DNA of 57,851 nucleotides from Chloroflexota bacterium (GCA_040002615.1 JBDUEE010000024.1:1-57851), one strand, 5' to 3'; shown: positions 4,903 through 44,735, numbered from the stretch's first letter. Made by a program: numbers and translations. Notes: generated by a model not told the origin, from the letters alone.

Positions 4903-6501
4903 CTAGAGCGGCGGCAGGTCCACCACCCGGGCGTCGCGCATGCCGGGCACGGCTCGCAGGCGGTCGAGCACCGCCTCTGGGACCGACGAGTCGACACTGA
5001 CGACCATCATTGCCTCGCCGGCCGCCGACAGGCGGGAGAGCTCCAGCGACGAGATATTCACGCCTGCCTCGGCAAGGGCCGTGCCGACCGACCCGACGAT
5101 CCCGGGCTGGTCGTGGTGGCGGGTGACGAGCATGAGGCCAGCCAGCTCGGCATCGATCTCGAAGCCATCCAACCCGGCCACGTGCGGCCGGCCGTGAGCG
5201 GTCGAGCCGGCCAGGCGCAGGACCGCCTTGCCCTCGCCGGCCTCGAGGGTGACCAGGGAGGCCCACGGGTCGGAGGCATCGGTCCGGGTCTCGCGAACGC
5301 TGAGCCCGCGCTCGCGGGCTACCAGGTCCGCGTTGACCGCGTTGACCCGCTGGTCGGTGACCGCCTCCAGGATGCCCGCCAGGGCGGCGGTGCGGATGGG
5401 CGAGCAGTCCCAGGCGGCGATCTCGCCGGCGTACGTCAGTGCGATGCAGTCGAAGGCGTCGGGCGACAGCTGGCGGGCCAGGATCGCCAGGCGGCGCCCG
5501 AGCTCGACGTACGGCCGCAGGCGCGGGACCACGTCCGGCGCTACCGAGGGCGCGTTGACCGCGTAGGTCGGGGTCAGGCCGGCCAGCGCCTCGAGGAGCT
5601 GTTCCGACATCTCGATCGCCACCCGGTCCTGTGCCTCGGCAGTCGATGCCCCGAGGTGCGGGGTGAGGACCGTGTTTGGCGCGTCGCGGAGCCGGTTGTC
5701 CGGCACCATCGGCTCTGTCGAGTAGACATCCACCGCTGCCCCTGCAAGGCGCCCGTCACGCAGGGCGGCGGCCAGGGCAGCCTCGTCCACGATCCCGCCG
5801 CGCGCCACGTTGAGGACGACGGCCCCCGGTTTCATGGCCTCCAGCTGCGCCTGACCGATGAGTCCACGCGTCTGCGAGGTCAGCGGTGTGTGGACGGTGA
5901 TGACGTCGGCGCGCAGCAGCAGCTCAGGCAGCCCGACCAGTCGCGCGCCGTGCTCGGACGCCTGCTCAGCGGTCAGATATGGGTCGTGGGCGATCACACG
6001 CATCTCGAAGGCGGTGGCACGGCGAGCCACGGCCTTGCCGATCTTGCCCAGACCGATGATGCCAAGCGTGCGATGCCGCAGCTCGGAGCCGGTGAAGCGG
6101 CCGCGCTCCCAGGCCCCGGCACGCAGCGAGGCATCTGCCGCCGGTATGCGGCGCAGCAGCGCCAGCATGAGGGCCATGGTGTGCTCCGCCGCGGCGATCG
6201 TGTTGCCGGTCGGCGCGTTGACCACCATCACCCCGGCCCGCGTGGCGGCGGCCAGATCGATGCGGTCGGTGCCCACGCTGGCGACTCCGACGACCGAGAG
6301 CCGCGGCGCGGCGGCGGCCAGCAGCTCGGCATCGACCCGCGTCTGCGAGCGGACCACGAGCGCATCCCAGCCGTCGGACGCCGCCAGCCGCTCCAGCAGG
6401 GCAGAGCGCGACAGGCCGGTGGCGATCGCCGTGTCATGGGCGGCGGTCAGGATCTCCAGGCCGGCCTTGGCGATCGGCTCGGCGACGAGGATGCGGGCCA
6501 C
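4903..6501 (-). CDS. serA: D-3-phosphoglycerate dehydrogenase (long form with ACT domain)
   Basis: 532 aa. NAD-binding motif GIIGLGKIGKAVARRATAFEMRVIAHDPY. D-isomer 2-hydroxyacid dehydrogenase core. C-terminal ACT-like segment LVTRHHDQPGIVGSVGTALAEAGVNISSLELSR. Confidence 0.9.
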   Translation of the reverse strand: MARILVAEPIAKAGLEILTAAHDTAIATGLSRSALLERLAASDGWDALVVRSQTRVDAELLAAAAPRLSVVGVASVGTDRIDLAAATRAGVMVVNAPTGNTIAAAEHTMALMLALLRRIPAADASLRAGAWERGRFTGSELRHRTLGIIGLGKIGKAVARRATAFEMRVIAHDPYLTAEQASEHGARLVGLPELLLRADVITVHTPLTSQTRGLIGQAQLEAMKPGAVVLNVARGGIVDEAALAAALRDGRLAGAAVDVYSTEPMVPDNRLRDAPNTVLTPHLGASTAEAQDRVAIEMSEQLLEALAGLTPTYAVNAPSVAPDVVPRLRPYVELGRRLAILARQLSPDAFDCIALTYAGEIAAWDCSPIRTAALAGILEAVTDQRVNAVNADLVARERGLSVRETRTDASDPWASLVTLEAGEGKAVLRLAGSTAHGRPHVAGLDGFEIDAELAGLMLVTRHHDQPGIVGSVGTALAEAGVNISSLELSRLSAAGEAMMVVSVDSSVPEAVLDRLRAVPGMRDARVVDLPPL

Positions 6502-6678
6502 CTGAGCGAGTGTAGCCGGGCCGGCTCCAGCGACGCGCGGCCTACATCGGGATGAGGATGGTGCCGATCATGATGGCCGCCGGGGCACCGATCGAGCCGA
6601 GCGGCGACATGGCGGACACCAGGCCGGTACGAATGGGGCAGGGTCCTATTGCCCGCCGTACGCCTAAGGTTGGCGACG

Positions 6679-7575
6679 ATGCGTCGATCTCGAGGCAAAA
6701 TCCTCCGCGCCCTCCTTGCAGGCGCCATCGCGGGAGTCTCCGTCGTGCCGCTGCCGGCCGCCGAGGCAGCGGCCAGCGTGCCTGCTGTCACGCTGGTTGG
6801 CGCCGGCGATATCGCGTCCTGCCGCTCGATGGGCGACGGGCAAACCGCCGCGCTCCTGGATGGTCTGAAGGGCACCGTTTTCACCACCGGTGACAACGCA
6901 TACGGAAACGGCACGCCATCGCAGTACAACAACTGTTACGGGCCGACCTGGGGCCGTCACAAGAGCAGGACCCGACCGACGCCCGGCAACCACGATTACC
7001 TGACCGAGGACGCCGCCGGCTACTTCGGCTACTTCGGCGACACGGCCGGCACGCCAGGTCGAGGTTGGTATGCCTACAACCGCGGAGCGTGGCGCATGTA
7101 TGCCCTGAACTCGAACTGCGACGCGATTGGCGGTTGCTGGGTTGGGTCGGCACAGGAGCGCTGGCTGCGGGCGGATCTGGCAGCGAATCCCCACGAGTGC
7201 GTGATGGCGTACTGGCACCATCCCCGCTTCAGCTCAGGCAGGCATGGCAACGAGCTTGTCGTCCGCGGCCTGTGGAAGACGCTGTATGCGGCGGGCGCCG
7301 ACATCGTGGTCAACGGCCACGATCACGACTACGAGCGCTTCGCCCCACAGGGCTGGAGCGGGACGGCAGACCCCGTGGGAATCCGCGAATTCGTGGTCGG
7401 CACCGGGGGTCGGGGCCATTACCCGCGAGCCACCGTGCAGCCGAACAGCGAGGCCTGGGATGAGACCTCGTATGGCGTATTGAAGCTGGTGCTCGGTGAC
7501 GGCTGGTATCGCTGGCACTTCATCCCAGCGGGCACATCAACGTTCCGCGACTCAGGTAGCACCGACTGCCACTGA
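6679..7575 (+). CDS. Secreted calcineurin-like metallophosphoesterase
   Basis: ORF 6649..7575. A signal-like N-terminus follows the ATG at 6679 (MRRSRGKILRALLAGAIAGVSVVPLPAAEAAAS). Metallophosphoesterase motifs GDIAS, GDNAY, GNHDY and NGHDHDYERF are present. Confidence 0.8.
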   Translation: MRRSRGKILRALLAGAIAGVSVVPLPAAEAAASVPAVTLVGAGDIASCRSMGDGQTAALLDGLKGTVFTTGDNAYGNGTPSQYNNCYGPTWGRHKSRTRPTPGNHDYLTEDAAGYFGYFGDTAGTPGRGWYAYNRGAWRMYALNSNCDAIGGCWVGSAQERWLRADLAANPHECVMAYWHHPRFSSGRHGNELVVRGLWKTLYAAGADIVVNGHDHDYERFAPQGWSGTADPVGIREFVVGTGGRGHYPRATVQPNSEAWDETSYGVLKLVLGDGWYRWHFIPAGTSTFRDSGSTDCH

Positions 7576-7580
7576 CGCCG

Positions 7581-9047
7581 ATGTCAGCTCGCGTGTACAG
7601 TCTTGGCCGGCATGTCCTTTGCAGATCTGTCTGGGCACCCATGATCCGACGTCACCTCATGGCGCTACGCATCGGCCTCATGGCCGTGGACGGGGCCGTG
7701 GCTGCCGCGGTCTTTCTGGTGGTTGCGGACCTGCGCTACCTGGATGGCGACGCATCCGCACTGTGGCGAGCGCTGGACTTCGAGCCGAGGCTCGCAGCTG
7801 TCCTTTTCGCCATGACCTGGGTGGTCGTGCTGTGGAGCTGCGGGCTGTACCGATTGACTCCTCGCTGGCGGGTCTGGAGCGAGGTGCGCGACATCGTCCG
7901 CGCAACGCTGCTGGTGATCGTGCTGGTCCTCTCCACGCTCTTCCTCACCAAGCAGACCGATGTCAGCCGCCTCTTCCTGGTGCTGCTTTTCATCGCCGAG
8001 CCGACGGTCACCCTGGCTGGGCGTCTCGCGGTGCGAGCCACCTTCGACGCGCTTCGTCGCCGCGGGCACAACGTTCGATTCATGATCATTGCGGGGACGG
8101 GGCAGCTTGCCCAGGACTTCGCCGATGAGCTCGAGCGGCACGATGGGCTGGGCATCCGCGTCATTGGCCACCTGTCAGCACCCGGTGAGCCTCCGTCGGT
8201 GGTGACGCGACCGATCCTGGGCGGGATCGACTCCATCGACAACATCGTGCATACCCAGGTCGTCGACGAGCTGGGGGTCTGCCTCCCGGAGAGCGCGTCT
8301 CGCTACCTGGAGCCGATCACCAGCATCGCGGCCGGGGAGGGCAAGACCGTGCGGGTGGCGGTCGATCCTGTTGACGAGCTTCCGGGCGCCGCGGAAGAAG
8401 TCTTTGACCGGTTCCTGGTGCGGTCGATCGTCAACGATGGCCACCGCGAGATCAGTCTCATCTTCAAGCGGCTGATCGACATCGCCGGATCGGCTATCGG
8501 ACTCGTGGTCCTGAGCCCTCTCTTCCTGGTCACGGCCGCGGCATTACGTGTCCTCGACAGCGGCCCCGTGCTGTACGGGCAGACACGCATCGGCCTCCAC
8601 GGGCGGCCATTCAAGATCTACAAGTTCCGCTCCATGGTTCCCGGTGCTCATGCGCGCCTCCGCGAGGTGCGCCATCTGAACGAGCGCAGCGGCATCGCGT
8701 TCAAGGCCACCAACGATCCCCGCATCACCCGCATCGGTCAGTGGCTGCGCCGCACCTCCATCGACGAGCTCCCGCAACTGTGGAACGTCCTGATCGGCTC
8801 GATGAGCCTGGTCGGCCCGCGGCCGCCGCTGCCGGAAGAGGTCGAGAAATACGACGTGTGGCATCGCCGACGCCTGTCAATGAGACCGGGAATCACCGGG
8901 CTATGGCAGGTCGAGGCGCGCCACGACCCGGACTTCGACACGTGGGTCCAGCACGACCTCGTGTACATCGACGACTGGTCGATCTGGCTCGACCTGAAGA
9001 TCCTGGCGAGGACACTCCCCGCCATGCTCGCGCACGGCGGACACTGA
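7581..9047 (+). CDS. Polyprenyl-phosphate glycosyl-1-phosphate transferase (WbaP/CpsE-type bacterial sugar transferase, priming enzyme)
   Basis: 488 aa. N-terminal TM segments. The C-terminal catalytic domain has [34 protein letters not shown] and [21 protein letters not shown]. An alternative ATG lies at 7641. Confidence 0.85.
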
Positions 9048-9052
9048 CGAAG

Positions 9053-9691
9053 TCAGGAATACCCGAGCTCTGCCAGCTTCGCGAGCACCTTGGCTGCCGA
9101 TTCCTCGGGCGACTCCGAACCGTCTGAGTGGCAGACGACCTCCGCGTTCAAAGGTGCCTCATACGGGTCATTCACGCCGGTGAAGTTCTGGATCTCCCCG
9201 GCCATCGCCTTGCGGTAGAGACCCTTGACGTCGCGGTCCGCGAGCACCTCGAGCGGCGCCTCGACATAAACCTCCACGAAGCGGCCGACGTTCGCTCGGA
9301 TCTGGTCGCGAATATCCCGGTAGGGGCTGATGGCGGCGGCGATCGCCACAACGTCGTTTCGCGACAGGACCTCGCACACCCAGCCAATACGCAGGATGTT
9401 CGTGTCACGATCTTCCTTGCTGAAGCCAAGCCCCTTCGACAGATGCGTGCGCACCGCATCGCCGTCGAGGACTTCGACCTTATCGCCCCGCGAGCGGAGC
9501 TCGGCCTCCAGGATGTGGGCGATCGTGCTCTTGCCGGATCCTGACAGGCCGGTGAACCAGATGGTGAAGCCCGTCGTCTCGCGATCGTGCCGCGTCCCGG
9601 CGCCACCGCCAAGGTGGATCGTCTCGCCGTGACGAGTGGTGGTCGTGGTCAGGTCGGGCGCCGGGGGCGCGGGTCGATCGGTCTCTGTCAT
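9053..9691 (-). CDS. cysC: Adenylylsulfate (APS) kinase
   Basis: ORF 9053..9910. The internal ATG at 9691 (MTETDRP...) is preceded by a GAAGGA-like RBS. P-loop [13 protein letters not shown] and LDGD are present. It lies immediately downstream of sat. Confidence 0.9.
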
Positions 9692-9720
9692 TCGTCCTTC
9701 GTGATAGCGGAAACTGTTGG

Positions 9721-10908
9721 TCAGCGCGCGCCGGCCGGCGTTCGATAGGCGTCGATCAGGATCTTTGCCACCTCCGGGCGGCTGAACTCCTGCGGCGGCA
9801 TCTCGCCGCTCGAAAGGAGCTCTCGGACCTTGGTGCCGGACAGGATGAGGTGCTGCTCGTCGCCGTGCGGACAGGTCTTGTAGGAGGCCATGCCTTCGCA
9901 GGCATGGCACCAGAACGTGTGCTCAAAGAAGAGCGGCGTGATCCCCAGCTCGTCCGGTGCGAACTCGTCGAAGATGAGGTGGGCGTCGTAGGTGCCGTAA
10001 TAGCTGCCCACGCCTGCGTGGTCTCGGCCCACGATGAAATGGGTGCAGCCGTAATTCTTGCGCGCGATGGCGTGGAAGATCGCCTCGCGCGGGCCGCCGT
10101 AGCGCATCGCGGCGGGGTACACACTGAGCAGGGTCCGATCCGCGGGGTAGTAGTCAGCCAAGAGCGTCTCATAGGCGCGCATGCGGACATCTGCCGGGAT
10201 GTCGTCCGACTTCGTGTCGCCCACCAATGGGTGGATCAGGAGGCCATCGGTGACCTCCAGTGCGACCTTGGTCAGGTACTCATGGGCCCGATGGATGGGG
10301 TTGCGCGTCTGAAAGCCCACCACCCGGCGCCAGCCCTTCTCGGCGAAGATCGCGCGTGTCTCGGCCGGCGAGCGGCGATGTCCCGGAAAGGGTGGGTCCG
10401 CCGGCCCGTTCAGCACCGTCGCGTCGCCGCCGAGGTAGACGTCGCCACCGGCATAGATGCGCGCCACGCCCGGGTGCGCCTCCTCGGTGGTTCGGAAGAC
10501 CTGCTGCGCCTCGTGCTGGGGATCGAAGGTGTACTTCTCGGCCAGATCGAGGATCCCGAGCATGCGACCCTCGTCATCGTTGAGGGCCACCTGCGAGCCG
10601 ATGTCGAGCCGATCCGCCTCTTCCTGACTGACGGCCAGGGTGATGGGAATCGACCACGGCAGGCCGTTCGCCAGGCGCATGTCGTTGACGACAGATTGGT
10701 AGTCTGCCTGGCCCATGAAGCCGGTGAGCGGGCTGAAGGCGCCATTGCCGATCAACTCGAGGTCCGACGCGGCGACGCTGGCGAGCGTGATCGACGGCAG
10801 CGACGCTGCGCGCTCAAGGGCGCTCTCTCGCTCGCTTCCGTGCAGTGCGCGGTCGATCAGCGAGCCGCCGTGCGGCGTCGAGGTCATGGTTGCAGGTGTC
10901 AAGGTCAC
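9721..10908 (-). CDS. sat: Sulfate adenylyltransferase (ATP sulfurylase)
   Basis: 395 aa. Signature motifs [15 protein letters not shown] and VGRDHAGVG. The GTG at 10908 is preceded by GGAG. An alternative ATG lies at 10887. Confidence 0.9.
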
Positions 10909-11132
10909 AACACTCCGTGTGGCGGCTGAGAGGGTGCACGCGTCGGGGATTCGCCTGCGCGCGGCATTCGGGGTCGGGCTATCTATCCTACCGCCTGCTC
11001 CCCGGTCCGTGCTGAACGGCCGAGGTCATCGGGCCGAGCGAGTCAGCGCATGGCGGCTACAATCCGGCGGTGCCGGCGGTGCCGGTCGAATGCGTTCGCA
11101 GGAGGATCTGGTTGGCCGTCGCGGCAAAGGAC

Positions 11133-12119
11133 GTGAGTGACATCGGCGAGGTCGTGCAGGCGCTGCGCGACGCCAGGCGCGTCACCGCGATCTGTCACGA
11201 GAACCCGGACGCCGACACCATCGGCGCCGCCGTCGCCGTCTGCATCATCGCGGAGCGGCTTGGCGCCGAGGCCGAGATCGTGAGCGCGGATGGCATTCCA
11301 CCGGTCTTCAGCTTCCTTTCGCACGTCGGCGGCGTCAGGCGCCGGCCGATGCTCGAGCCGGACCTCGCGGTCCTGTGTGACGCGGCAACCCTGGAGCGCG
11401 TTGGCCGGATCGCGCGCGAACAGGCGGACTGGTTCGCCAGCGCCAAGCTGCTGAATATCGATCATCATGTGAGCAGCAATCTCTTCGGCGACCTCAACCT
11501 CGTCGACTCGCGGGCCGCCGCAACCTGCGAGGTCGTGGCGCGGCTGGTGGACGCCCTCGGGATCGAGCTGGACGCAGAGCTCGCCACCCCGCTGCTGACG
11601 GGCATTGTCCGTGACAGCCACGGCTTCTCGGATCCGGCGACATCGGGCGACACGCTGCGAGCTGCTGCCCGCCTGGTCGACGCCGGCGCTCCCCTCGCGC
11701 TGATCCATCGCCTTATCCTGTCCGAGCTGCCGTTCCGCACCATGGCTCTGTGGGGCAAGATGCTGGCGGGCGTGGGCCAGGCCGGCGATGGGCGAGTCGT
11801 GCATGCGACGCTGACCCAGTCGATGCTCGACCAGACTGGCACCGAGCAGCATGACGCCGATGGCCTCGCCGAATTCCTGGCGAAGGCGAAGGGGGCCGAC
11901 GTGACGCTCCTGCTCCGCGAGCTGGGGCCGGCCGAGACGCGGGTCAGCGTGCGGACGTCCGAAGCCGTCGACGCGACCGCCATCGTGGCGCAGTTCGGTG
12001 GCGGAGGCCATGTGCGCCGAGCGGGATGCACGGTCCCTTGCCACGTCGATGAGGCGGTCGCCCTGGTCGTTTCCGCCAGCGTCGAGGAGCTGCCCCACGG
12101 ACCCGCTGCCGGCGCGTAG
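11133..12119 (+). CDS. nrnA: DHH/DHHA1 phosphoesterase (NrnA-like; candidate 3'-phosphoadenosine 5'-phosphate phosphatase / nano-RNase)
   Basis: ORF 11070..12119. The GTG at 11133 follows AAAGGA. Motifs seen: HENPDADTIGAA, LLNIDHH (DHH) and the DHHA1 motif FGGGGH. Confidence 0.7.
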   Translation: MSDIGEVVQALRDARRVTAICHENPDADTIGAAVAVCIIAERLGAEAEIVSADGIPPVFSFLSHVGGVRRRPMLEPDLAVLCDAATLERVGRIAREQADWFASAKLLNIDHHVSSNLFGDLNLVDSRAAATCEVVARLVDALGIELDAELATPLLTGIVRDSHGFSDPATSGDTLRAAARLVDAGAPLALIHRLILSELPFRTMALWGKMLAGVGQAGDGRVVHATLTQSMLDQTGTEQHDADGLAEFLAKAKGADVTLLLRELGPAETRVSVRTSEAVDATAIVAQFGGGGHVRRAGCTVPCHVDEAVALVVSASVEELPHGPAAGA

Positions 12120-12192
12120 CCAGGGAACGCCCGATGGTCGCGGTGGTCCGCTGACGGCCCCCCTCGACCGGGTCACGGTCTTCGCGCGGGCC

Positions 12193-13575
12193 TTGGCAAT
12201 CCTGCGGGCGCGCCGATGGCGCGAGTCATTGGCACTCGGATTGCCACTGGCGGCGCTGGGCGCCCTTTCCCTCTATCATCTCGGCGCTCCCAGCCTGTGG
12301 CGGGACGAGGTGGCCAGCGTGATCTTCGCCAAGGGATCGCTGCCGGAGCTGCTCACCATCGTGGGCCGCGATCGGGACGCGGTCGGCCTGGCCAACATGG
12401 CGACCTACTACCTGCTGCTCCACTTCTGGCTGTTCATCGGCGAGACCGAGGCTCGCATCCGGCTGCTGTCGGTGATCTTCGGAGTGGCCAGCGTGGTGCC
12501 GGTCTACTTCATCGCCCGCCGCCTGGCGGGCTGGCTGGCCGGCGGGCTGGCGGCCGGCATCTTCGTGCTGATCCCCTACGTCATCCACTACTCGCAGGAG
12601 GCGCGCGGCTACTCGCTGGCGATGCTGGTGGCCGGCTCGCTGACCTGGCTGCTGCTGATCGGTGTCGAGCGGCGCACCGTCTGGCCGTGGGCCGCCTACG
12701 GGCTGATTGCCGCGCTGGGCCTGTATGTCCACTTCTTCGTGGCGCTGATCGTGGCCGCGCACGGCCTGTGGGTGCTGGCCACCCGCTCGCTGCCGCCCTG
12801 GCGCAGCGCGCTGGCTGCCCTGCTGCCCATCCTGCTGGCGGCGGCCCCCATCCCGTTCATCATCGCCCAGTTCGGCGGCGGGCAGGAGTGGATACCGCCG
12901 TTGACGGTCTCGCAAGCGGCCACCAGCATCGTCTCGCTGGCCGGCGGGCTGCCACTGCTCCTGGCCATGGCCGTGCTCGTGGCAGTCGCCGTCATCACGA
13001 GATCCCGCGATTCCAGGACCTGGCTGATGATCGGGTGCATCGTCGCCACGATCGCTGGGGCGGCGCTGATCTCAATCGTCAAGCCGATGTTCGTCGGCCG
13101 GTACCTCATCGTCGTGCTGCCGCACGTCGCAGTCCTCATCGGCTGCGCCCTGATCGCCCTGCGCCCCATCATCCTGCGGGGCGCTGTGGTCGCCCTGCTG
13201 GCGGTGCTGCTGGGGGCAGCGATCCCGAGCGCGTACGCCGACCAGCACCAGCAGGATTGGCGGTCGGCCGGCACCTGGATGGCTGAGAGGGCGCAACCGG
13301 GCGACCGTATGATTGCCGGCAATGGACTGCGTTCGATTGCGTATTACCTTGGCCGCGTCGCCACCTCTCCCCTCCCTCGGTCGACGACGGCAGCGGCCGC
13401 CCTCGCGGATCCGACGGGCGGTCGCCTGTGGCTCGTATTGACCGGCCGAGCGGCGAACTCCCGGATCCGGAGCCGCCTTGTGGGCAGGTTCGTCGTCGAG
13501 GAGGAACGTGCGTTCGGCGCGGATCTGACGATCGCGCTCTTGGTCACGAAGCCGACGACGCCCGGCGCAAGCTAA
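12193..13575 (+). CDS. GT-C fold membrane glycosyltransferase (GT39 / ArnT-PMT-like), paralogue A
   Basis: ORF 11998..13575. It is polytopic and has a first-loop acidic motif SLWRDEVAS typical of GT-C enzymes. The start is uncertain: the ORF's first codons overlap nrnA by about 120 nt, and the TTG at 12193 is a guess. Confidence 0.6.
   Translation: MAILRARRWRESLALGLPLAALGALSLYHLGAPSLWRDEVASVIFAKGSLPELLTIVGRDRDAVGLANMATYYLLLHFWLFIGETEARIRLLSVIFGVASVVPVYFIARRLAGWLAGGLAAGIFVLIPYVIHYSQEARGYSLAMLVAGSLTWLLLIGVERRTVWPWAAYGLIAALGLYVHFFVALIVAAHGLWVLATRSLPPWRSALAALLPILLAAAPIPFIIAQFGGGQEWIPPLTVSQAATSIVSLAGGLPLLLAMAVLVAVAVITRSRDSRTWLMIGCIVATIAGAALISIVKPMFVGRYLIVVLPHVAVLIGCALIALRPIILRGAVVALLAVLLGAAIPSAYADQHQQDWRSAGTWMAERAQPGDRMIAGNGLRSIAYYLGRVATSPLPRSTTAAAALADPTGGRLWLVLTGRAANSRIRSRLVGRFVVEEERAFGADLTIALLVTKPTTPGAS
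12291..12884 (+). repeat. Direct repeat copy 1 (594 bp, near-identical to 13726..14319)
   Basis: Base-by-base comparison with copy 2 gives a constant offset of 1435 nt and no indels. Only 2 mismatches were found (ttcGccaaG versus ttcTccaaA near the 5' end). Similarity is sharply lost on both sides. Confidence 0.9.
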
Positions 13576-18159: not shown

Positions 18160-19911
18160 ATGACTCCCCGCGCCCGATCCACGCTGCTGGCGCTGGCGAT
18201 GCTGCTGGCCTGGGGCCTCGGCGGCTACGCAACCCCAGCGCCAGCCATCGGCGCGGGAATCACCCTGTACGTGGACGGCAAGCACGGCAGCGACAGCGAT
18301 ACCGGCCGCTCCTGGGACCGTGCATTCCGGACGATCAACCGCGCCGCGAGGGAGCTGCCGCGCGATTCACATGCGGCCGGTTGGACGGTCGTGGTTCGAG
18401 GCTACAGCGACTACGTCTACCGTGGGCGGCCGGTGCCGGGCGCCTACGACCGTGCCGGAACCGCCTCCAATCCGGTGATCTTCACCGCAGAGGGATGGGC
18501 GCCTGGAGCCACGAACTACGTGAAGCCGATCGTCTCGGGGGCACTCGTGGCACCCAAGGCTGGCCGATCCTGGCAGGACGACTCGACGTCAGATGTGTGG
18601 TGGACTGCCTGGGACGCGGCGCCGGCTGGATTCGATCGGTCCAAGCCGTACTCGAGCGCCGTCTTCCAGAACCGCATCGGGTTCCTGTGGCAGCACGCCA
18701 GCCTGGCCGACCTGCGCAACCGAGCAAGCCGCGGTGACGGCGGGTACTGGTGGGACTCCGGGGCGCATCGGCTGTATATCAGCACCCGCAGGGGCGTGGC
18801 CCCCAGCTCGGTAACGATCGACGTCCCGAACTACATGGGCTTCTACTTCACCGGATCGGCTGGCTCACGCTACATCTCTGTGCGTGGCTTCGTGGTGCAG
18901 CACACCTCGATGGGGATCACCTTCCACCTCGGTGCGGACCACAACTCGGCCTACGACAATATCGGCGTTGCCAACGTGCCCATGAGCTTCGGCACATCGG
19001 GACGCACCACCAACTCCGGCTTCGACCCAGCGGTCGCCAACGTCTTCCTCCGCAATTCCGCCTCGTACAGCACGCTGCAGGGCTTCAAGGTCGACGCCGG
19101 CTCGCAGGACACGGTCATCTGCCATAACACGGTCCGCCACAATGCGCTCCAGGGCATCAAGGTGCAGGGACCTCCAACTGCTTCCGATCCCCGCGTCACC
19201 AGCGGCACCGAGGTCTGCCACAACGTCCTCGCCGACCAGGACACGCAGCGGCCGGGACCTGGTCGCGCGGACGAGCGGCCAAACGGGCTGACGCTCTGCA
19301 ACGGTGCGCGCGGCACATACGTGCACCACAACACGATCCGGAGCAACGTCGTCGGTGTCCAGGTCAACCAGGGCGGGATCGGGAGCCCGATCACGAACAC
19401 ACGATTCCAGCGCAACCTGGTTTACGGGAACCGGTCTGTTGGACTGAGCCTGCGCGACGGGGTGGCGGATCGCCGGTCTGGCACCGGCTCGCTGCACGCA
19501 TCGTTCAATCTCTATTGGGACAACGAGATCGGGATACGCGTGCACTCAGGCAGCACGAACAAGATATTCGAGCATGAAACGGTGTACGAGAACCGGACCT
19601 CGGGATTCGTGATCGGCTGTGACTGCGCCTCCGCGCGGACCGAGGTGGCGGTCAGCGAGGGCCTGGTGACGCACAACGGCGCGTATGGGATCTGGATCGC
19701 CCCTGGCCAGGACGTCCGGCTGCGGTACCTGGGCATTTCGTCCAACAAGAGTGGCGCGGTTCTTGGCTCGGCCAGCAAGACGCGGGTCAACACTCGTGCT
19801 GCCGGCTACCTGTCCCGCGACCCAGCAACCGGCGAGTTCCTGAAGATCGGCCCCTCGTCGTTCCAGTACACGGCCGGCGTGGACGGCAAGCCGATCGGGG
19901 CACGCTACTGA
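18160..19911 (+). CDS. Secreted right-handed parallel beta-helix repeat protein (candidate polysaccharide lyase or C5-epimerase)
   Basis: ORF 18121..19911. A signal-like N-terminus follows the ATG at 18160 (MTPRARSTLLALAMLLAWGLGGYATPAPA). PbH1-like coils recur: HNTVRHNALQGIKVQG, HHNTIRSNVVGVQVNQ, QRNLVYGNRSVGLSLRD, LYWDNEIGIRVHS, VYENRTSGFVIG and VTHNGAYGIWIAP. Confidence 0.65.
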   Translation: MTPRARSTLLALAMLLAWGLGGYATPAPAIGAGITLYVDGKHGSDSDTGRSWDRAFRTINRAARELPRDSHAAGWTVVVRGYSDYVYRGRPVPGAYDRAGTASNPVIFTAEGWAPGATNYVKPIVSGALVAPKAGRSWQDDSTSDVWWTAWDAAPAGFDRSKPYSSAVFQNRIGFLWQHASLADLRNRASRGDGGYWWDSGAHRLYISTRRGVAPSSVTIDVPNYMGFYFTGSAGSRYISVRGFVVQHTSMGITFHLGADHNSAYDNIGVANVPMSFGTSGRTTNSGFDPAVANVFLRNSASYSTLQGFKVDAGSQDTVICHNTVRHNALQGIKVQGPPTASDPRVTSGTEVCHNVLADQDTQRPGPGRADERPNGLTLCNGARGTYVHHNTIRSNVVGVQVNQGGIGSPITNTRFQRNLVYGNRSVGLSLRDGVADRRSGTGSLHASFNLYWDNEIGIRVHSGSTNKIFEHETVYENRTSGFVIGCDCASARTEVAVSEGLVTHNGAYGIWIAPGQDVRLRYLGISSNKSGAVLGSASKTRVNTRAAGYLSRDPATGEFLKIGPSSFQYTAGVDGKPIGARY

Positions 19912-20816
19912 GCGGAACGCTCCTGCGGTAGCCAGCCCGCGAGCCTGCGACCGAGCAGCGCCTCCAGCCGCCGATTTCCCTGCGCCAGCTCTTCACGCAG
20001 CCGGGCGATCGCGTCCGGGCCCAGCGCCTCGCGCGGCGACGGCTCCGTGTTGAGCCGAACCGCCGAGCGATACAGGCGGCGACGCAATCGAGGTGGCGCG
20101 ACGCGGCGGCCCACCGAGCGAACCCATTCGGGCGGGTCATTGAGCGCGCGCCGCAGGAGTAGGCTCCGCGATCGCTTGCTGGCGTTTACGACGGCGAATT
20201 CCGGCTGGTGCGCCGGATCGAGTGACAGGAAGGCCAGCACGTCACGGTAAGCGGCGGAGGTATCGGCCCTGAAGTCGTCGTACACGATGACGTGCACGCC
20301 GCTGCGGCCGAAGCGATCGAGATAGCGCTCCAGCTGCTCGGCATAGGAAGCCACCCTCCGGTAGAGCATTCCTCGCGGGAAGTTGGCATGGGGCGGGATA
20401 CGACGACCCGCGGCGCGATCCTCCTCAGCCGCCAGCGCCTCCTCGAGAAGGAGATCCTCGTGACCGTTGTAGACGAATTGGCTGTGGAGCGACGCAATCA
20501 TCTCCACGGGGTCGCGGAGCATGGCAATGATGCGTGCATCGGGGACGGCGGCGTGGATCTCGTCGGCGGCGCGCTCCGAGTAGAGGTACCAGACGGACGC
20601 CTCGCCGATGCGGCTCCGCCCATCCGCGTTCGCAAAGTAGGACTCGTACTGCCCGGCGCTCGGTCGGCGGCGATACCGGAACTCCAGGTCGCTTCCGAAG
20701 TAGTGCGGCTCCTTCGGGTCCGACATCAGGACGTCGGGGTGCTGCGTGAGATACGCGTGCAGGGCGGTGGTGCCGCATTTCGGCGCACCCACGATGAAGA
20801 AGTTCGGCAGCGTCAC
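19905..20816 (-). CDS. Sulfotransferase (Sulfotransfer_1-like, PAPS-dependent), paralogue 1
   Basis: 303 aa. 5'-PSB loop FFIVGAPKCGTTAL lies at the extreme N-terminus. 3'-PB region MLRDPVEMIASLHSQ. No signal peptide. There is a 4-nt start/stop overlap with the upstream paralogue. Confidence 0.85.
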   Translation of the reverse strand: MTLPNFFIVGAPKCGTTALHAYLTQHPDVLMSDPKEPHYFGSDLEFRYRRRPSAGQYESYFANADGRSRIGEASVWYLYSERAADEIHAAVPDARIIAMLRDPVEMIASLHSQFVYNGHEDLLLEEALAAEEDRAAGRRIPPHANFPRGMLYRRVASYAEQLERYLDRFGRSGVHVIVYDDFRADTSAAYRDVLAFLSLDPAHQPEFAVVNASKRSRSLLLRRALNDPPEWVRSVGRRVAPPRLRRRLYRSAVRLNTEPSPREALGPDAIARLREELAQGNRRLEALLGRRLAGWLPQERSAQ

Positions 20817-21727
20817 GGCGCATCCGATGGCCGCAACCAGCCGCCCAGGTCGCGCCCGATCATCTCGCCCAACCGCATCATCTCCGGGCGCAGGTCATCG
20901 ATCAGTCGTGCCCGCAGCGCGGGGTCAAGTGCGGCGCGCGCCTGCCGCCGGGCGTTCAGTCGGGTGGCGGCCCGATAGAGACGCTTGCGCGTGGTACGCG
21001 GCAGGAGACGGCGAGCGGTGCCACGGATCCAGCCCGGCGGGCTCGCCACCAGGCGCTGCAGCATGCGACTTCGTGTTGTCTTGGCGGCATTGAGCACCTC
21101 AAGCCGTGGTTCGAAGTGGTCGTCCACGCCCAGGAAGCGGAACGTGCCGGCGACACTGGCGGCGGTATCGGCCTTGAAGTCGTCGAAGACGATCACGTGC
21201 ACCCGCTCGCGGCCCAACGCCTGGTGGTACCGAGCCAGTTGCTCGCAGAAGTTGACGGCCTCCCGGTAGAGGAGGCCCCGCGGGTTGTTGATGGCCGCCG
21301 GGATCCGCCTGCCTTCACGCCGATCGGCCTCCGCGGCGAGCGCCTCGCCAAATTCGGCGATCTCCTCGATGCCCAGGAACACCAGTTCGGCGTGCAGGGC
21401 CTGCATGACCTCCAGGGGGTTGCGCAGCATCACGATCGCCTGGGCCTGCGGCGCGAAATCGGCGATCTCGCGCGCAGCCAGGGTCGAGCGCAGGTAGCTG
21501 ACCGATGCCTCACCGATGCGGACGCCGGGTGGCGCCGACGCGAAGTTGGCCAGGTATTCCTCCAGGGTGAGCCGCGCGGTGTGGCGCGAGGGGCGGTCGC
21601 TGCCGAAGTAGTTCAGCTCCTTGATTGCCGGCATGAAGATGCCGGGGTGCTGTCGCAGGTAGTCGTGCAGCGAGGTCGTCCCGGACTTCGCCGCACCGAC
21701 GATGAAAAAGTCGGGCCGTGGGCTCAT
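20813..21727 (-). CDS. Sulfotransferase (Sulfotransfer_1-like), paralogue 2
   Basis: 304 aa. Motifs FFIVGAAKSGTTSL and MLRNPLEVMQALHAE. The C-terminal motif EMIGRDLGGWL is shared with the other paralogues. Confidence 0.85.
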   Translation of the reverse strand: MSPRPDFFIVGAAKSGTTSLHDYLRQHPGIFMPAIKELNYFGSDRPSRHTARLTLEEYLANFASAPPGVRIGEASVSYLRSTLAAREIADFAPQAQAIVMLRNPLEVMQALHAELVFLGIEEIAEFGEALAAEADRREGRRIPAAINNPRGLLYREAVNFCEQLARYHQALGRERVHVIVFDDFKADTAASVAGTFRFLGVDDHFEPRLEVLNAAKTTRSRMLQRLVASPPGWIRGTARRLLPRTTRKRLYRAATRLNARRQARAALDPALRARLIDDLRPEMMRLGEMIGRDLGGWLRPSDAP

Positions 21728-21737
21728 GGGACCGATG

Positions 21738-22886
21738 CTATCCGGATGCCGAGCCGGCCGCGCCGATGACTTCGTCGATCAGCTCCGCGTAACGCCGGAG
21801 CGCCTCCTGCGGAGCGAAGCGCTCCGATCGTCTCCGTGCGCCGGCACGCAGGCGCGCTGCGAGCTGCGGGTCGCGAAGGACGCGAAGGATCGCGGCCGCC
21901 AGGGCAGCCGGGTCGCGGGTCGGAACGAGGAGGCCGCTGCGCTCCGGCTCGATAATCTCGTCGGGTCCGAACTGCGAGTCGGTTGCGATGGCGACCGCTC
22001 CGACGCGCATGGCCTCGACCAGCACGAATGGAAAGGCCTCCCAGTCGGACGCCAGCACAAACACGTCGGCACGCCGCATGGCCGGGAATGGGTTCGGCAC
22101 GTGACCCGCCAGATGTACCGCATCCTTCAGGCCCAGCCGAGCGATCTCCGCCTCCAGCGCTGGCCGTTCCTCCCCCTCCCCTAAGATCACCAGCCGTGCG
22201 GGGACCTGGCGGTGGACGTCGACGAGCGCCTGAAACAGGACCGGATAGGCCTTCTGCGCCGTGAGACGCCCCACTGCTACCAGCGTGGGCCTCGGACCGG
22301 CGAACCACTCGGCTGGCGGATCCTCCTCCGTGAGGCGATCAACCTCCGGGTCGAAGGGGTTGTAGATAGTGCGCAGCCGATGGGGCGGCAGGTCAAGTTC
22401 TTGGATCATCGCGGCACGCAACCCTTCTGAGACGGGCACCACTGCTCCGACCCGCCGGTACAGGCGACGGGCGATCGCGAGCTGCAGACGTTTGCCGGGC
22501 GTGGCGCGCAGCGCATCCGGTGTGACGTGCTCGGTGGCGATGACGGGAATGCCCGATCGCTCCAGGGCAGACGCGCCGATGAGCAGCAGGTTCTGGTAGG
22601 TCATGAAGCCGATGGCGACGGCCGGTCTTCGTCTGCGCAGGTCCGCGGCCAGCCGCGCGAGCACCCGCATGAGGTCCAGACGCGACCGCTTCTCGAGCGA
22701 GCGAATGGGGACGCGGTCGGGCAGCTCCTCCACCACTGCCTGGTTCTCGTCGCGCCGGTGCAGCACCACGATCTCGGGCGCGTACCGATCCGGATCCAGT
22801 CCGCGCGCCAGGATGCTGACCAGACGCTCCATCCCGCCCTGGCGAATGGAGGGCACGAGGAAGAGGATTCGCCGCGGCTGTGTCAC
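21738..22886 (-). CDS. Glycosyltransferase family 4 (GT-B, Glycos_transf_1)
   Basis: 382 aa. It has VAVGRLTAQKAY and the EX7E-type motif SDWEAFPFVLVEAMRVG. Confidence 0.85.
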   Translation of the reverse strand: MTQPRRILFLVPSIRQGGMERLVSILARGLDPDRYAPEIVVLHRRDENQAVVEELPDRVPIRSLEKRSRLDLMRVLARLAADLRRRRPAVAIGFMTYQNLLLIGASALERSGIPVIATEHVTPDALRATPGKRLQLAIARRLYRRVGAVVPVSEGLRAAMIQELDLPPHRLRTIYNPFDPEVDRLTEEDPPAEWFAGPRPTLVAVGRLTAQKAYPVLFQALVDVHRQVPARLVILGEGEERPALEAEIARLGLKDAVHLAGHVPNPFPAMRRADVFVLASDWEAFPFVLVEAMRVGAVAIATDSQFGPDEIIEPERSGLLVPTRDPAALAAAILRVLRDPQLAARLRAGARRRSERFAPQEALRRYAELIDEVIGAAGSASG

Positions 22887-23791
22887 GACGGGGCGCGCCA
22901 GGCCGGCAGCGGGCGGCCCAGCAGGCGTTCCAGCTTCGCGACCTCTGGATCAAGCTCGGCGCGAAGCCGGTCGCGCAGCTCGGAGGTCAGCGCGACCCGC
23001 CCGGGCGTGGCGGAGTTGAGGGCGACGGCCCGGCGGTACGCGAGGCGCCGGAGAGGAGTCGGGACCGCCGCGCGCACCGCGCGCCGCAGCGGAGCCGGTG
23101 GGGCTGCCAGGAAGCGACGCATGAGCGCCGATCTGGCGCGCTTGTTCGGGTTGGCGTGCGGGAGAGGAATCTCGGGGCGCGGCGAGAGCCCCAGAAAGCG
23201 GACGATGGCGGCACAAGTCTCCTGGGGCCGATCGATCAGGTCATCGAACAGCAGCACATGGACGTGATCCGAGCCGAAGCGGTCGAGGTAGCGTTCCACC
23301 TGCTCGGCGTAGCGTACCGTGGCCCGGTAGCAGAGCCCGGCCGGGAAATGTGCCTCCGCTGGGATGCGTCGGCCGGCGCATCGGTCCGGCTCGGCCGCCA
23401 ACGCATCGGCGAAATCCTCCAGGTCCTCATTGCCGTCAAAGACGAACTCGGAGTGAAGGGCATACAGGGCCGCGCTCGGGTTCCGTAGGGCGATAACAAT
23501 CCGGGCATCGGGCCGCACCTCGGCGATCTCCCGTGCAGCGGCCCGGCTGAACAGGTACCAGACGTATGCGACGCCGCACAGGGAACCCGGCGGCGCGTCG
23601 CGGTAGAGATCCAGGAATTCCTCGGCCGTCCATTCCCGCCGGTGGCGGACGTCCAGGTCCTCTCCGAAGAACCACAGCTCCTTCTGCTCCGGTACGAAGA
23701 CCTCCGGGTATGCCGCCACGTACTCGTAGAGCGAGGTGGTCCCCGCCTTGGGCGCCCCGACGATATAGAAGTCGGGCCAACGGGCGGTCAC
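22883..23791 (-). CDS. Sulfotransferase (Sulfotransfer_1-like), paralogue 3
   Basis: ORF 22883..23869. The GTG at 23791 lies 4 nt after the upstream gene's stop. Motifs FYIVGAPKAGTTSL and ALRNPSAALYALHSE. Confidence 0.85.
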   Translation of the reverse strand: MTARWPDFYIVGAPKAGTTSLYEYVAAYPEVFVPEQKELWFFGEDLDVRHRREWTAEEFLDLYRDAPPGSLCGVAYVWYLFSRAAAREIAEVRPDARIVIALRNPSAALYALHSEFVFDGNEDLEDFADALAAEPDRCAGRRIPAEAHFPAGLCYRATVRYAEQVERYLDRFGSDHVHVLLFDDLIDRPQETCAAIVRFLGLSPRPEIPLPHANPNKRARSALMRRFLAAPPAPLRRAVRAAVPTPLRRLAYRRAVALNSATPGRVALTSELRDRLRAELDPEVAKLERLLGRPLPAWRAPS

Positions 23792-23795
23792 GCGC

Positions 23796-24701
23796 TCAGC
23801 TCCGGTCGGCGGCAGCCCACCACGTGCCGGCCAGGTCGCGGCCGAGCAACGCCTCCAGGCGCGTGACATCCGGTGCGAACTCGGCCCGCAGTCGCTCCCG
23901 GAGGGCCGGGCTCACCGGCGGGCGGTCCAGTCGCCGGCGGTTCGTGCGACGCAGCAGGCGCATGCAGGCGATGGCTATTCGGTCCAGACGGCTTACGGGA
24001 ACGGCTCGGTGCGGCAGTCGGCCGACGATGCGTGAGAGCAGCACACTGCGGGGCCGCAGGCTCGTGTTGTAGTGGCGAAATGAGGCCGGTTGGTAACCAG
24101 GGCTCAATTCCAGGAATGCGAGCAAGTGGGCGAACGTCTGTTGCGGCTCGGCGGCCAACTCCTCAGTGATGATGACGTGCACCCGTTCACGCCCGAAAGC
24201 ATCGAACCAGCGCGGCAGCATGTCGGCGTAGCGGACGCGATCTCGATAGCGGACGCTCGACTGGTCGCCGACGGTACCGAAGCCGGGGCGCGTGTGCTCG
24301 TCCGCCATGGCGTCGGCGAAATCGACCTTTGGCTCGACCCCCTGGGCGACGCGCATGCCGTGCAGCGAGTGCATCATGTCGACCGGGTTGCGCAGCATCG
24401 CCACGATGCGGGCATCTGGCGCGAATTCCCGAATCCGTTCGACCGCCTCCGGCGACTCCAGGTAGGAGGTCGACGCCTCGCCTACCTTCTTCGCATCGCC
24501 TGCATCCTCGAAGAGGGCCAGGTAGCGATCCATCGCATCCGGGAAGGGCATGCCCCGCTTCACGATCCGATCACCGGCGAAGAACTGCGGCTCCTTGACG
24601 CCTGCCAGGAAGACCTCCGGATGCCCCTGCAGGTAGTTGTAGAGCGAGGTCGTCCCGCATTTCGGGGCGCCGACGATGAACAGATCGGGGCGTCGCGTCA
24701 C
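23796..24701 (-). CDS. Sulfotransferase (Sulfotransfer_1-like), paralogue 4
   Basis: 301 aa. Motifs LFIVGAPKCGTTSL, MLRNPVDMMHSLHG and the C-terminal ALLGRDLAGTW. Confidence 0.85.
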   Translation of the reverse strand: MTRRPDLFIVGAPKCGTTSLYNYLQGHPEVFLAGVKEPQFFAGDRIVKRGMPFPDAMDRYLALFEDAGDAKKVGEASTSYLESPEAVERIREFAPDARIVAMLRNPVDMMHSLHGMRVAQGVEPKVDFADAMADEHTRPGFGTVGDQSSVRYRDRVRYADMLPRWFDAFGRERVHVIITEELAAEPQQTFAHLLAFLELSPGYQPASFRHYNTSLRPRSVLLSRIVGRLPHRAVPVSRLDRIAIACMRLLRRTNRRRLDRPPVSPALRERLRAEFAPDVTRLEALLGRDLAGTWWAAADRS

Positions 24702-24769: not shown

Positions 24770-25777
24770 GTGTCGATCGCGTTGGTAATGACCGTCCGGG
24801 ACGAGGTGGAGTTCCTCCGCAGCAACCTGCTGTACCACCACCATCTCGGGGTCGATATCGCCTACGTCTATGATGACGGCTCGACGGACGGCACCGCGGA
24901 GACCGTCGCCGACTTGCCCTTTGTGCGCATCCGCCAGACGGTGAAGGCCTCCTCGCTTGCCCCTGGTGAGCGAATCGACCCGGCCGATGAGTCAGAGCTC
25001 TACACCACGACTCGCCAGAACATCAACACCGGCCATGCGTTGGGCCGCGCCCGCGCCGACGGCATGACCTGGCTGCTGGCCATCGATGCCGATGAGCTGG
25101 CTTGCGTGGACATGGTCTCGCAGGAGGCCGGTGGCCTGGGACGGGCGTTGGGCACGGTGCCGAAGGAGGTCGAGGCGGTGATCCTGCGCCCGCTGGAGAT
25201 CGTCCAGCGACAGATAGCGTTCGATGACACGATGGCGCAGGAGACGCTCTTCAAGCGTGCGGACGTGGGGTTGAAGCACCTGACCTTCGATCCCTTCACA
25301 CGGACGACTCACAGCGTCCGCGGTGTGTACGGGCATACCGCCGGAAAGAGCGCCGTCCGCCTGGCGGCTAACCTGCGGCCGGAAACGGTGCATCGTTTCC
25401 GCCGGAGCGACGGGTCGCGACCGACCTCCACCGACCTCGGCTGGCTGCTGCACTATTTCTGCTACAGCTTCGAGGCCTTCGTGCGCAAGTTTCGTCTGTA
25501 CCGCGATCACCCCGACCGGCACCTCCACGGTCACGAGGTCCAGCTGCAGAAGCGGCTGTGGCGTGACGTCGTCAACCGGTCGGGCATGAGCGAGGAGGAG
25601 CTGCGCGACTACTACCAGCGGTGGGTCATGTTCGACGACCGCGAAATCGCCCGTCTCCGCCAGCGGCGGTGGCTGGGGATCGTGCCGCGTCCGCCGGCGG
25701 TGGTCGAGGTGACGGCGGCCCGCAGGACGTTCGCTGAGCTGCGGGCTCAGCCGGCCGAGCTGGCCGTCGGACGCTGA
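24770..25777 (+). CDS. Glycosyltransferase family 2-like (GT-A fold)
   Basis: 335 aa with a GTG start. N-terminal ALVMTVRDEVEFLRSNLLYHHHLGVDIAYVYDDGSTDGT. DxD-like motif AIDADE. Confidence 0.65.
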   Translation: MSIALVMTVRDEVEFLRSNLLYHHHLGVDIAYVYDDGSTDGTAETVADLPFVRIRQTVKASSLAPGERIDPADESELYTTTRQNINTGHALGRARADGMTWLLAIDADELACVDMVSQEAGGLGRALGTVPKEVEAVILRPLEIVQRQIAFDDTMAQETLFKRADVGLKHLTFDPFTRTTHSVRGVYGHTAGKSAVRLAANLRPETVHRFRRSDGSRPTSTDLGWLLHYFCYSFEAFVRKFRLYRDHPDRHLHGHEVQLQKRLWRDVVNRSGMSEEELRDYYQRWVMFDDREIARLRQRRWLGIVPRPPAVVEVTAARRTFAELRAQPAELAVGR

Positions 25778-30244: not shown

Positions 30245-30284
30245 CAGGCTGATGATACCGAGGGATGGATTGTCCGCTGCCGCG

Positions 30285-40616: not shown

Positions 40617-40626
40617 GCGAGACGGG

Positions 40627-41754: not shown

Positions 41755-41857
41755 TCAGGTCTCCGATCCGGGATGGTCGTCCACGATCACGCCGCTATCC
41801 TAGGTCTGCCCAGGCAACGGCATCCTTCCGTCATGCAGCGGGGCCCGACACGGGTGA

Positions 41858-44723: not shown

Positions 44724-44735
44724 GCGGTCGCCATT

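Follow-up and report, generated by a model that had tools for sequence, protein, structure and literature searches.

A lineage-specific NrnA paralogue linked to sulfate activation genes in a Limnocylindria glycan island, and its proposed role in pAp removal

In a 57,851-nucleotide stretch of DNA from a Chloroflexota bacterium (GCA_040002615.1, JBDUEE010000024.1:1-57851; the whole stretch is called the window below), the sulfate activation genes sat and cysC lie divergently from a gene for a DHH/DHHA1 phosphoesterase of the NrnA type (positions 9053-12119). Here, we show that this protein belongs to a group, group A, that is linked to sulfate activation genes across its class and carries a derived active-site signature. 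Judged by its sequence, it is a lineage-specific duplicate and not the housekeeping NrnA. The initial annotation had proposed an NrnA-like DHH protein for the removal of 3'-phosphoadenosine 5'-phosphate (pAp). Since the linkage to sulfate activation is conserved class-wide, pAp removal is the best reading of the group-A protein, with the substrate predicted from context and active-site residues. We consider it probable that sat-cysC and the group-A duplicate, which would clear pAp, together serve a sulfated-glycan island.

The window has a G+C content of 65-71%, and the homologues of its DHH protein and of its inorganic pyrophosphatase (ppa) come, where named, from Candidatus Limnocylindria or Chloroflexota. 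The host is an uncultured soil Chloroflexota of the class Limnocylindria. A scan of one genome per GTDB species with the DHH query gave 80 loci, which were annotated by tblastn with the window proteins. With metagenome contigs included, group A comprises 43 loci; a second group, group B, comprises 42. The two groups do not overlap, with identities to the window protein of 55-80% in group A and 48-55% in group B. Group B is the housekeeping NrnA copy. All 42 of its loci have the gene order nusA-infB-rbfA-DHH-truB-ribF-rpsO-pnp, and none has a sulfur gene.

Group A was never found in the housekeeping position between rbfA and truB. In 40 of its 43 loci, sat, cysC, cysDN or a DASS-like permease gene lies within 3 kb; the remaining three stop at a contig end, with no more than 93-1345 bp of upstream sequence. 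Linkage to sulfate genes is thus 40/43 in group A versus 0/42 in group B (Fisher p = 2.4e-24, for loci that are not phylogenetically independent). The immediate divergent neighbour of the group-A gene is sat in 18 loci, the permease gene in 17 and cysC in one, and the order permease-cysC-sat followed by the divergent DHH gene recurs around close homologues on long metagenome contigs. In one lineage, cysD-cysN stands in place of sat without loss of cysC, the permease or the divergent DHH gene, so that the link of the DHH gene to sulfate activation survives this replacement as well as several rearrangements. A PAPS_reduct-family gene in one locus (L004) was considered as CysH and ruled out; it encodes CysD and is paired with CysN, both above their equivalog cutoffs. 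Both paralogues occur together in 14 metagenome-assembled genomes, for example on one 2.24-Mb contig (L018 and L064, on CAWJZO010000001.1).

In a neighbour-joining tree rooted with the outgroup TM1595 of Thermotoga maritima, groups A and B form separate clades with bootstrap values of 68% and 84%. Identity is 49% between A and B, 27-29% between either group and the outgroup, 62% within A and 70% within B. The tree and the identities would fit a duplication inside the lineage, followed by faster change in group A.

Fourteen positions are fixed differently between the two groups. Three of them (R167, D174 and R303) were placed at the active site by alignment to solved homologues. R167 stands directly before the metal-binding Asp of motif IV, where group B has Gln and most of the family Thr. 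Position 174, six residues after this Asp, is Asp in the window protein and in 98% of group A, and His in group B and TM1595; in the nearest family clusters it is Y, F, H, T or N and is acidic only in group A. R303 replaces the conserved Ala of GGGHxxA, which is Ala in 134 of 137 aligned sequences, and the window protein reads GGGGHVRRAG in place of the family motif GGGH-x-x-A-(S/A)-G. A survey of 1.84 billion cluster representatives returned 14,866 family members, and among the 136 full-length clusters in the best 150 the triple was found in one, which is a group-A cluster.

How these residues may affect the choice of substrate is suggested by solved relatives. D174 lies opposite W187 of Mycobacterium tuberculosis Rv2837c in a HMMER alignment. 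This tryptophan corresponds to F162 of Bacillus subtilis NrnA and stacks the 3'-terminal base of the dinucleotide substrate, while pAp is held in the B. subtilis enzyme by its 5'-phosphate at the DHHA1 domain, with the 3'-phosphate toward the metals (PMC5593865). The RxSxR strand of the group-A protein is the same as in the group-B paralogue. As read from the alignments, group A has kept the two-metal centre and the 5'-phosphate-binding strand, has lost the platform for the second base and has gained two arginines by the catalytic Asp and the GGGH motif. The lost platform and the gained positive charge would fit a preference for a small bisphosphate, that is, a doubly phosphorylated mononucleotide, over oligonucleotides. 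A bolder proposal, which we put forward only tentatively, is that group A has neofunctionalised into a phosphatase specific for pAp and has given up nanoRNase activity, with R167, D174 and R303 setting substrate choice, and that it was recruited independently of CysQ and of the archaeal pAp phosphatase for a heavily sulfated envelope glycan containing nonulosonic acid, in a soil lineage that is abundant and uncultured.

The protein itself is a stand-alone, two-domain DHH-DHHA1 enzyme within the size range of its class (about 310-340 aa). Its DHH domain (PF01368, 1.7e-13, 51.4 bits) and its DHHA1 domain (PF02272, 1.2e-08, 35.8 bits) score above their cutoffs of 28.1 and 25.9 bits. Motifs I-IV (DxD, D, DHH and D) and the GGGH motif are all present, and a comparison of 20 group-A sequences shows no variation at H29, D33, D35, D90, D117-H118-H119, D168 and G297-G298-G299-H300. 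The best sequence matches in the PDB are TM1595 (2e-34) and Rv2837c/CnpB (7e-33). In a Foldseek search, the AlphaFold model (pLDDT 88.4) has template-modelling (TM) scores of 0.76-0.80 to TM1595, MSMEG NrnA and a DrRecJ-like structure, and of 0.74-0.78 to B. subtilis NrnA. The description "NrnA-like" is therefore apt at the level of the fold and does not extend to the housekeeping NrnA, from which this derived paralogue differs in residues that contact the substrate. With the NCBIfam equivalog model for NrnA (NF053633), the window protein scores 72.4 bits against a cutoff of 350; the model is narrow, because the group-B paralogue also stays below it (99 bits).

The gene most likely starts at TTG 11112, preceded at a distance of 6 nt by a Shine-Dalgarno sequence (AGGAGG); this start codon and its Shine-Dalgarno sequence are kept in the closest relatives. 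The GTG at 11133 that was annotated at first was dropped, being 21 nt off. The divergent arrangement was described correctly, and the shared intergenic region shrinks from 224 bp (10909-11132) to 203 bp. Two blocks in it are kept in alignments of the relatives. One, GGCTACAATCC at 11055-11065, holds a -10-like TACAAT on the plus strand (11058-11063); the other, TATC(C/G)TA(C/G)CGCC near 10983-10995, holds a -10-like TAGGAT/TACGAT on the minus strand. We infer a promoter role for these blocks from their conservation, and the shared region suggests coupled expression of sat-cysC and the DHH operon. A consensus scan of 8900-12400 for promoters and terminators found none, with no full sigma-70 match, and Rfam reported no RNA element in the intergenic region.

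Genes in the window were called by third-position GC bias (GC3), and the open reading frames (ORFs) supported by GC3 were annotated with Pfam. The four genes named in the initial annotation (sat, cysC, the DHH/DHHA1 gene and ppa) are all present, with domains above the curated Pfam thresholds. Sat scores 574 bits with NF003166 (cutoff 387) and CysC 269.6 bits with NF002059 (cutoff 244), so that domains and scores place both in their classes. CysC has the P-loop GLSGSGKST, and its orthologues are 73-93% identical in 28 related loci. Its longest ORF spans 9053-9910, with a likely ATG start at 9691, 29 nt after the sat stop. On the other side, 5 bp separate the end of cysC from the priming-transferase gene, which is convergent with it (window 9047-9053). 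In six relatives (L001-L003 and L008-L010), a 576-612-aa DASS-like permease with TrkA_C domains lies between these two genes, and most relatives carry such a permease within the module. No homologue of it was found anywhere in the 57.8-kb window, and to call the module self-contained, as had been done, was too strong. In two relatives (L008:8620-9906 and L016:8759-9895) a sulfatase-like gene, which shares the strand of the group-A gene, is inserted between that gene and sat; it has a CCPSKAS formylglycine-type motif and weak matches to arylsulfatase models of NCBIfam.

The proposed users of activated sulfate are close by. Five clear sulfotransferase genes and a weak one lie in the island, and all five clear ones have the KxGTT 5'-phosphosulfate-binding (PSB) loop. 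The matches of the weak candidate (Sulfotransfer_2, 5.5e-4; Sulfotransfer_1, 5.8e-4) are both below the gathering threshold, and the protein is kept in related loci at 58-76% identity. That genes for the synthesis of 3'-phosphoadenosine 5'-phosphosulfate (PAPS) stand beside sulfotransferases, as initially annotated, is borne out by sat, cysC and these six PAPS-type candidates. Among long loci, a sulfotransferase homologue was found within 10 kb in 26 of 30 in group A versus none of 32 in group B. PAPS reductase, sulfite reductase and CysQ had no Pfam match in any GC3-supported ORF of the window, and a scan for signature motifs was negative too, in line with the initial statement that the window has no PAPS or sulfite reductase. 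The motif scan, which is of limited sensitivity, also found no cysH, sir or cysQ motif in 756 kb comprising the window and the loci around the 43 group-A genes. Because these cysH and sir motifs are absent from the 756 kb and sulfotransferases lie near 26 of the 30 long loci, it is plausible that PAPS is made for sulfotransfer rather than for assimilation; with sulfite reductases common in the lineage, it may also serve both ends.

Taken as a mechanism, the core at 9053-12119 would be the cofactor-handling unit of a sulfated-glycan island. Sat would convert ATP and sulfate to adenylyl sulfate (APS) and pyrophosphate (PPi), and CysC would phosphorylate APS to PAPS. Five or six sulfotransferases would then use PAPS on a glycan built by the neighbouring priming transferase, glycosyltransferases (GTs) of the GT4, GT2 and GT-C types, Wzx/Wzy and the nonulosonic-acid pathway. 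Each sulfotransfer would release pAp, from which the group-A protein would remove the 3'-phosphate, yielding AMP and phosphate and relieving product inhibition of the sulfotransferases. PPi would probably be removed by the ordinary family I pyrophosphatase of the cell, which happens to lie at the locus.

Several points weigh against this proposal. The pAp substrate rests on genomic context and three residues, and the bootstrap support of the A/B split is moderate. Characterised NrnA enzymes cleave pAp with the aromatic platform intact, so that D174 argues for a loss of nanoRNase activity and not directly for a gain of pAp activity. In three deep-branching loci of group A (L033, L035 and L041), the full-length exceptions to the sulfotransferase linkage, no window-type sulfotransferase homologue lies within 10 kb; these loci keep sat and/or cysC, and two of the three are still in glycan contexts. 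Sulfite reductases (cysIJ/sir) are common in the lineage, and a PAPS reductase also yields pAp, so that an assimilatory role, too, would agree with this phosphatase.

It is conceivable, then, that sat-cysC-DHH is mainly assimilatory, that a PAPS reductase encoded elsewhere makes the pAp, and that the unit stands beside glycan genes through inherited synteny next to serA. Besides the common sulfite reductases, this would agree with a relative (L089) in which cysD-cysN-cysC lies beside serA with neither a group-A gene nor a sulfotransferase within 7 kb, with the non-glycan context downstream of the gene in L041, and with the observation that activation and transport genes are the partners that never vary in group A, sulfotransferases being near most long loci and not all. 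We nevertheless regard it as unlikely. Genes for CysH and sulfite reductase usually cluster with sat or cysDN, and no motif of either was found around the group-A loci. A convergent sulfotransferase gene follows the group-A gene directly in 13 loci. In eight loci (L020, L021, L022, L027, L030, L037, L040 and L045) the DHH gene has no flanking genes other than those for the permease and a sulfotransferase, and those of the eight with full 10-kb flanks have no sat or cysC within 10 kb. The six sulfotransferase candidates of the window point the same way.

A less likely alternative is that group A is a second phosphodiesterase for dinucleotides or cyclic dinucleotides (pApA, pGpG or cyclic di-AMP), which might, for example, tune the RCK_C/TrkA_C permease via cyclic di-AMP. 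RCK_C domains are receptors of cyclic di-AMP in K+ transporters, the permease is an immediate neighbour in 17 loci, and the closest solved relatives, TM1595 and Rv2837c/CnpB, are phosphodiesterases for pApA/pGpG and cyclic di-AMP. On the other hand, the window retains the DHH gene in the absence of the permease, and sat is the neighbour in 18 loci. Moreover, W187, which stacks the second adenine of pApA in Rv2837c, is replaced by Asp in nearly all of group A, and the housekeeping paralogue already covers dinucleotide turnover.

Least probable of all is that the DHH protein cleaves PAPS or APS, for instance as a PAPS 3'-phosphatase, and acts as a safety valve on activated sulfate; the greater negative charge of PAPS would also match the two additional arginines and divergent co-expression with sat-cysC would fit a homeostatic pair, but a futile cycle would result, and we know of no characterised NrnA-type enzyme that prefers PAPS. 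The DHH enzyme of Pyrococcus yayanosii has been speculated to degrade both pAp and PAPS (PMC8268124), whereas the linked enzyme MtPAPP is highly PAP-specific (PMC10322725) and the CysQ slot of an analogous Cobetia module holds a pAp phosphatase (PMC11766843). Clearance of pAp by the group-A protein is the reading we retain.

The pyrophosphatase gene is a different case from the DHH gene. PF00719 covers its full length and places the protein in family I, while the equivalog models of NCBIfam stay below cutoff (149 versus 200). The gene begins 17 nt after a GT4 gene, and its start is supported by many 178-aa homologues with 100% coverage. Among the best 120 matches, homologues are 77-93% identical, a tighter range than for the DHH gene, and ppa exceeds the other genes of the module in conservation. 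The neighbours of ppa vary in four relatives: Wzx and NeuB in one, metE and a GT2 gene in another, two nonulosonic-acid clusters on either side in a third, and the order serA-cysD-cysN-cysC-GH15-ppa in L089, where ppa is 2.4 kb from cysC. The distance from serA to ppa is 32.5 kb in the window versus about 7 kb in L089, and the two genes appear to be conserved anchors at a glycan locus that is itself hypervariable. In contrast to the DHH gene with its paralogue, no second ppa copy was seen in the homologue search and at the ppa loci of the four relatives. The view of ppa as a dedicated accessory of the module, as first proposed, found no support; the gene behaves as a highly conserved anchor beside varying glycan genes. 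Ppa is probably a conserved, housekeeping core gene that bounds the locus, and as a predicted pyrophosphatase it will hydrolyse PPi from Sat and from nucleotide-sugar synthesis alike.

Table 1. Features of the window discussed in the text.
Feature	Position	Strand	Length	Evidence or remarks
serA	4903-6501			
Calcineurin-like metallophosphoesterase	6649-7575			between serA and priming transferase
cysC, adenylyl-sulfate (APS) kinase	9053-9691	-	212 aa	APS_kinase (Pfam) 1.4e-59
sat, homo-oligomeric ATP sulfurylase	9721-10908	-	395 aa	PUA_2 1.7e-58; ATP-sulfurylase 1.1e-98 (Pfam)
Divergent intergenic region	10909-11111		203 bp	common to sat-cysC and DHH operon
Group-A DHH/DHHA1 phosphoesterase	11112-12119	+	335 aa	sulfation-linked NrnA paralogue; proposed pAp 3'-phosphatase
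ST1 (sulfotransferase)	19905-20816	-	303 aa	Sulfotransfer_3 2.3e-16; Sulfotransfer_1 1.3e-09; 5'-PSB loop GAPKCGTT
ST2	20813-21727	-	304 aa	Sulfotransfer_3 5e-11; PSB loop GAAKSGTT
ST3	22883-23869	-	328 aa (longest ORF)	start possibly ~23791; Sulfotransfer_3 9.4e-14; PSB loop GAPKAGTT at residue 38
ST4	23796-24701	-	301 aa	Sulfotransfer_3 2.7e-15; PSB loop GAPKCGTT
Weak sixth sulfotransferase candidate	25747-26517	-	256 aa	PRTGSS loop
ST5	29318-30316	-	332 aa (longest ORF)	probable start M25 ~30244; Sulfotransfer_3 2.7e-13; Sulfotransfer_1 4.8e-11; loop GAFKSGTT
AT3-SGNH O-acyltransferase, first of tandem pair	33232-35322		696 aa	pair just upstream of GT4-ppa pair
AT3-SGNH O-acyltransferase, second of tandem pair	35737-37821		694 aa	
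ppa, family I inorganic pyrophosphatase	39025-39561	+	178 aa	PF00719 2e-52, 177.5 bits (cutoff 23.5)
Nonulosonic-acid pathway, complete-looking	39558-46864			NeuB, NeuC-like 2-epimerase, PglD-like acetyltransferase, PseB-like dehydratase, DegT aminotransferase, CMP-transferase, 484-aa ORF with no Pfam match
Right end of window	53459-55042, 55234-57725			GGDEF diguanylate cyclase, LCP (LytR-CpsA-Psr) ligase, MraY/WecA-like GT4
Partial tRNA gene	57795-57851	-		Rfam RF00005, 41 bits; cut by window end

By Pfam annotation, about 50 kb around sat-cysC-DHH form a glycan island. Apart from the sulfotransferases, it contains a priming phosphoglycosyl transferase, GT-C/PMT_2, GT4 and GT2 transferases, Wzx and Wzy, two AT3-SGNH acyltransferases, two UDP-sugar dehydrogenases, a NeuB-type nonulosonic-acid pathway and an LCP ligase. 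The tandem AT3-SGNH genes suggest O-acylation of the same glycan, which may be both sulfated and decorated with nonulosonic acid. The same nonulosonic-acid pathway flanks ppa in two relatives (L086 and L088). The genes at the right end of the window hint at attachment of the glycan to the cell wall and at possible control by cyclic di-GMP. The metallophosphoesterase gene next to serA is found in the same position in at least nine relatives, at 52-66% identity, and its product matches no NCBIfam model. A 515-aa ORF with no Pfam match (27774-29321) lies near the weak 256-aa sulfotransferase candidate, with a GT4 gene between them; a similar pair of 512 and 256 aa is adjacent and directly follows the DHH gene in L004 (10996-13306) and L005. 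Apart from the partial tRNA gene, an Rfam scan of the window found nothing.

Two observations concern the wider locus set. Typical Limnocylindria loci of groups A and B (L024, L048, L070 and L043) come from metagenome-assembled genomes labelled Steroidobacteraceae or Zixiibacteriota, which are probably binning or labelling errors. In three group-B operons (L064:13165-15924, L061:13291-15831 and L075:13302-15962) the polynucleotide phosphorylase has 846-919 aa. That of L064 has a DEDDh (DnaQ/PolC-type) 3'-5' exonuclease domain at about residues 283-470, between the RNase PH halves (RNase_T in Pfam, 1.5e-20; NF005906, 1.3e-39; PDB 2p1j, 3e-21), with the polynucleotide phosphorylase profile split into 1 to about 260 and 472-900. 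It looks like an unusual exonuclease fusion in the housekeeping operon.

The nearest known counterpart of the module is the cysNC-cysD-cysQ-sulfate permease module in the sulfated capsular polysaccharide cluster of Cobetia marina KMM 1449 (PMC11766843). There, ATP sulfurylase, APS kinase, pAp phosphatase and a sulfate transporter share a polysaccharide locus with sulfotransferases, and the relatives of the window have all four. In the window itself, ATP sulfurylase and APS kinase are encoded together with sulfotransferases in a single polysaccharide locus, which lacks the linked transporter. The two systems differ in the slot of the pAp phosphatase, which is taken by CysQ of the inositol monophosphatase (IMPase) fold in Cobetia and by an NrnA-derived DHH/DHHA1 protein here; no Inositol_P match was found among the window ORFs, nor any IMPase signature in the 756 kb at the motif level. 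They also differ in the sulfurylase, a homo-oligomeric Sat in the window and CysDN in some relatives, and in the host, a gammaproteobacterium with Kps export as opposed to a Chloroflexota lineage, for which the window shows an LCP ligase. A capsule cluster of Vibrio sp. KMM 8419 carries second copies of cysNDC (PMC11641403).

In archaea, DHH-family pAp phosphatases occur in sat/APS-kinase loci, with their gene placed between sat and that of APS kinase, as PYCH_17540 of P. yayanosii (PMC8268124) and as MtPAPP of Methanothermococcus thermolithotrophicus (PDB 8A8K), which is PAP-specific by experiment (PMC10322725). These share with the window protein a DHH/DHHA1 fold and the linkage to ATP sulfurylase and APS kinase, and in some archaea sulfotransferases are adjacent as well. 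A homologous relation to them was ruled out: no archaeal pAp phosphatase appears among the PDB sequence matches of the window protein at E<=10, and 8a8k ranks 47th in the structural comparison, with a TM score of 0.40 and 13% identity. The Limnocylindria enzyme thus appears, from these comparisons, to have arisen separately, by duplication of a bacterial housekeeping NrnA. With NrnA in the strict sense (B. subtilis YtqI/NrnA, Rv2837c/CnpB and TM1595) it shares the two-domain fold (TM 0.7-0.8) and the DHH and GGGH motifs; it differs in falling below the equivalog cutoff, in lying outside the rbfA-truB operon, and in having Asp at the F162/W187 position and Arg at two sites. For enzymes of the NrnA type, hydrolysis of pAp and complementation of cysQ have both been described (PMC9779919).

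The rhizobial NodP/NodQ-NodH and Xanthomonas RaxP/RaxQ-RaxST systems resemble the module in that sulfate activation is tied to a sulfotransferase pathway and not to cysteine synthesis. In both, PAPS for a sulfated signal is supplied by a second or dedicated activation set. Their acceptors are a lipo-chitooligosaccharide or a peptide, not a polysaccharide, and to our knowledge neither system has a linked pAp phosphatase.

The logic of the module is already known from Cobetia and archaea, and our results extend existing knowledge rather than open a new area. What is new is the NrnA-derived paralogue with its clade-specific active-site signature; no bacterial NrnA paralogue tied to sulfation turned up in a literature search. 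Sulfated polysaccharides are regarded as rare in bacteria, and loci for sulfated glycans in Chloroflexota metagenomes could be recognised by the group-A signature in combination with sat or cysDN, cysC, the permease and sulfotransferases. As pAp removal and PAPS supply are bottlenecks in the microbial production of sulfated products, a compact and possibly pAp-selective phosphatase could also serve their engineering. Whether pAp hydrolysis is a physiological role of NrnA or a side activity is still debated. The presence of a housekeeping and a sulfation-linked copy in one genome offers a clean comparison of how pAp and nanoRNA are discriminated, with three residues to mutate. If group A is indeed pAp-specific, it would be a natural separation, within one genome, of the two long-debated activities of NrnA.

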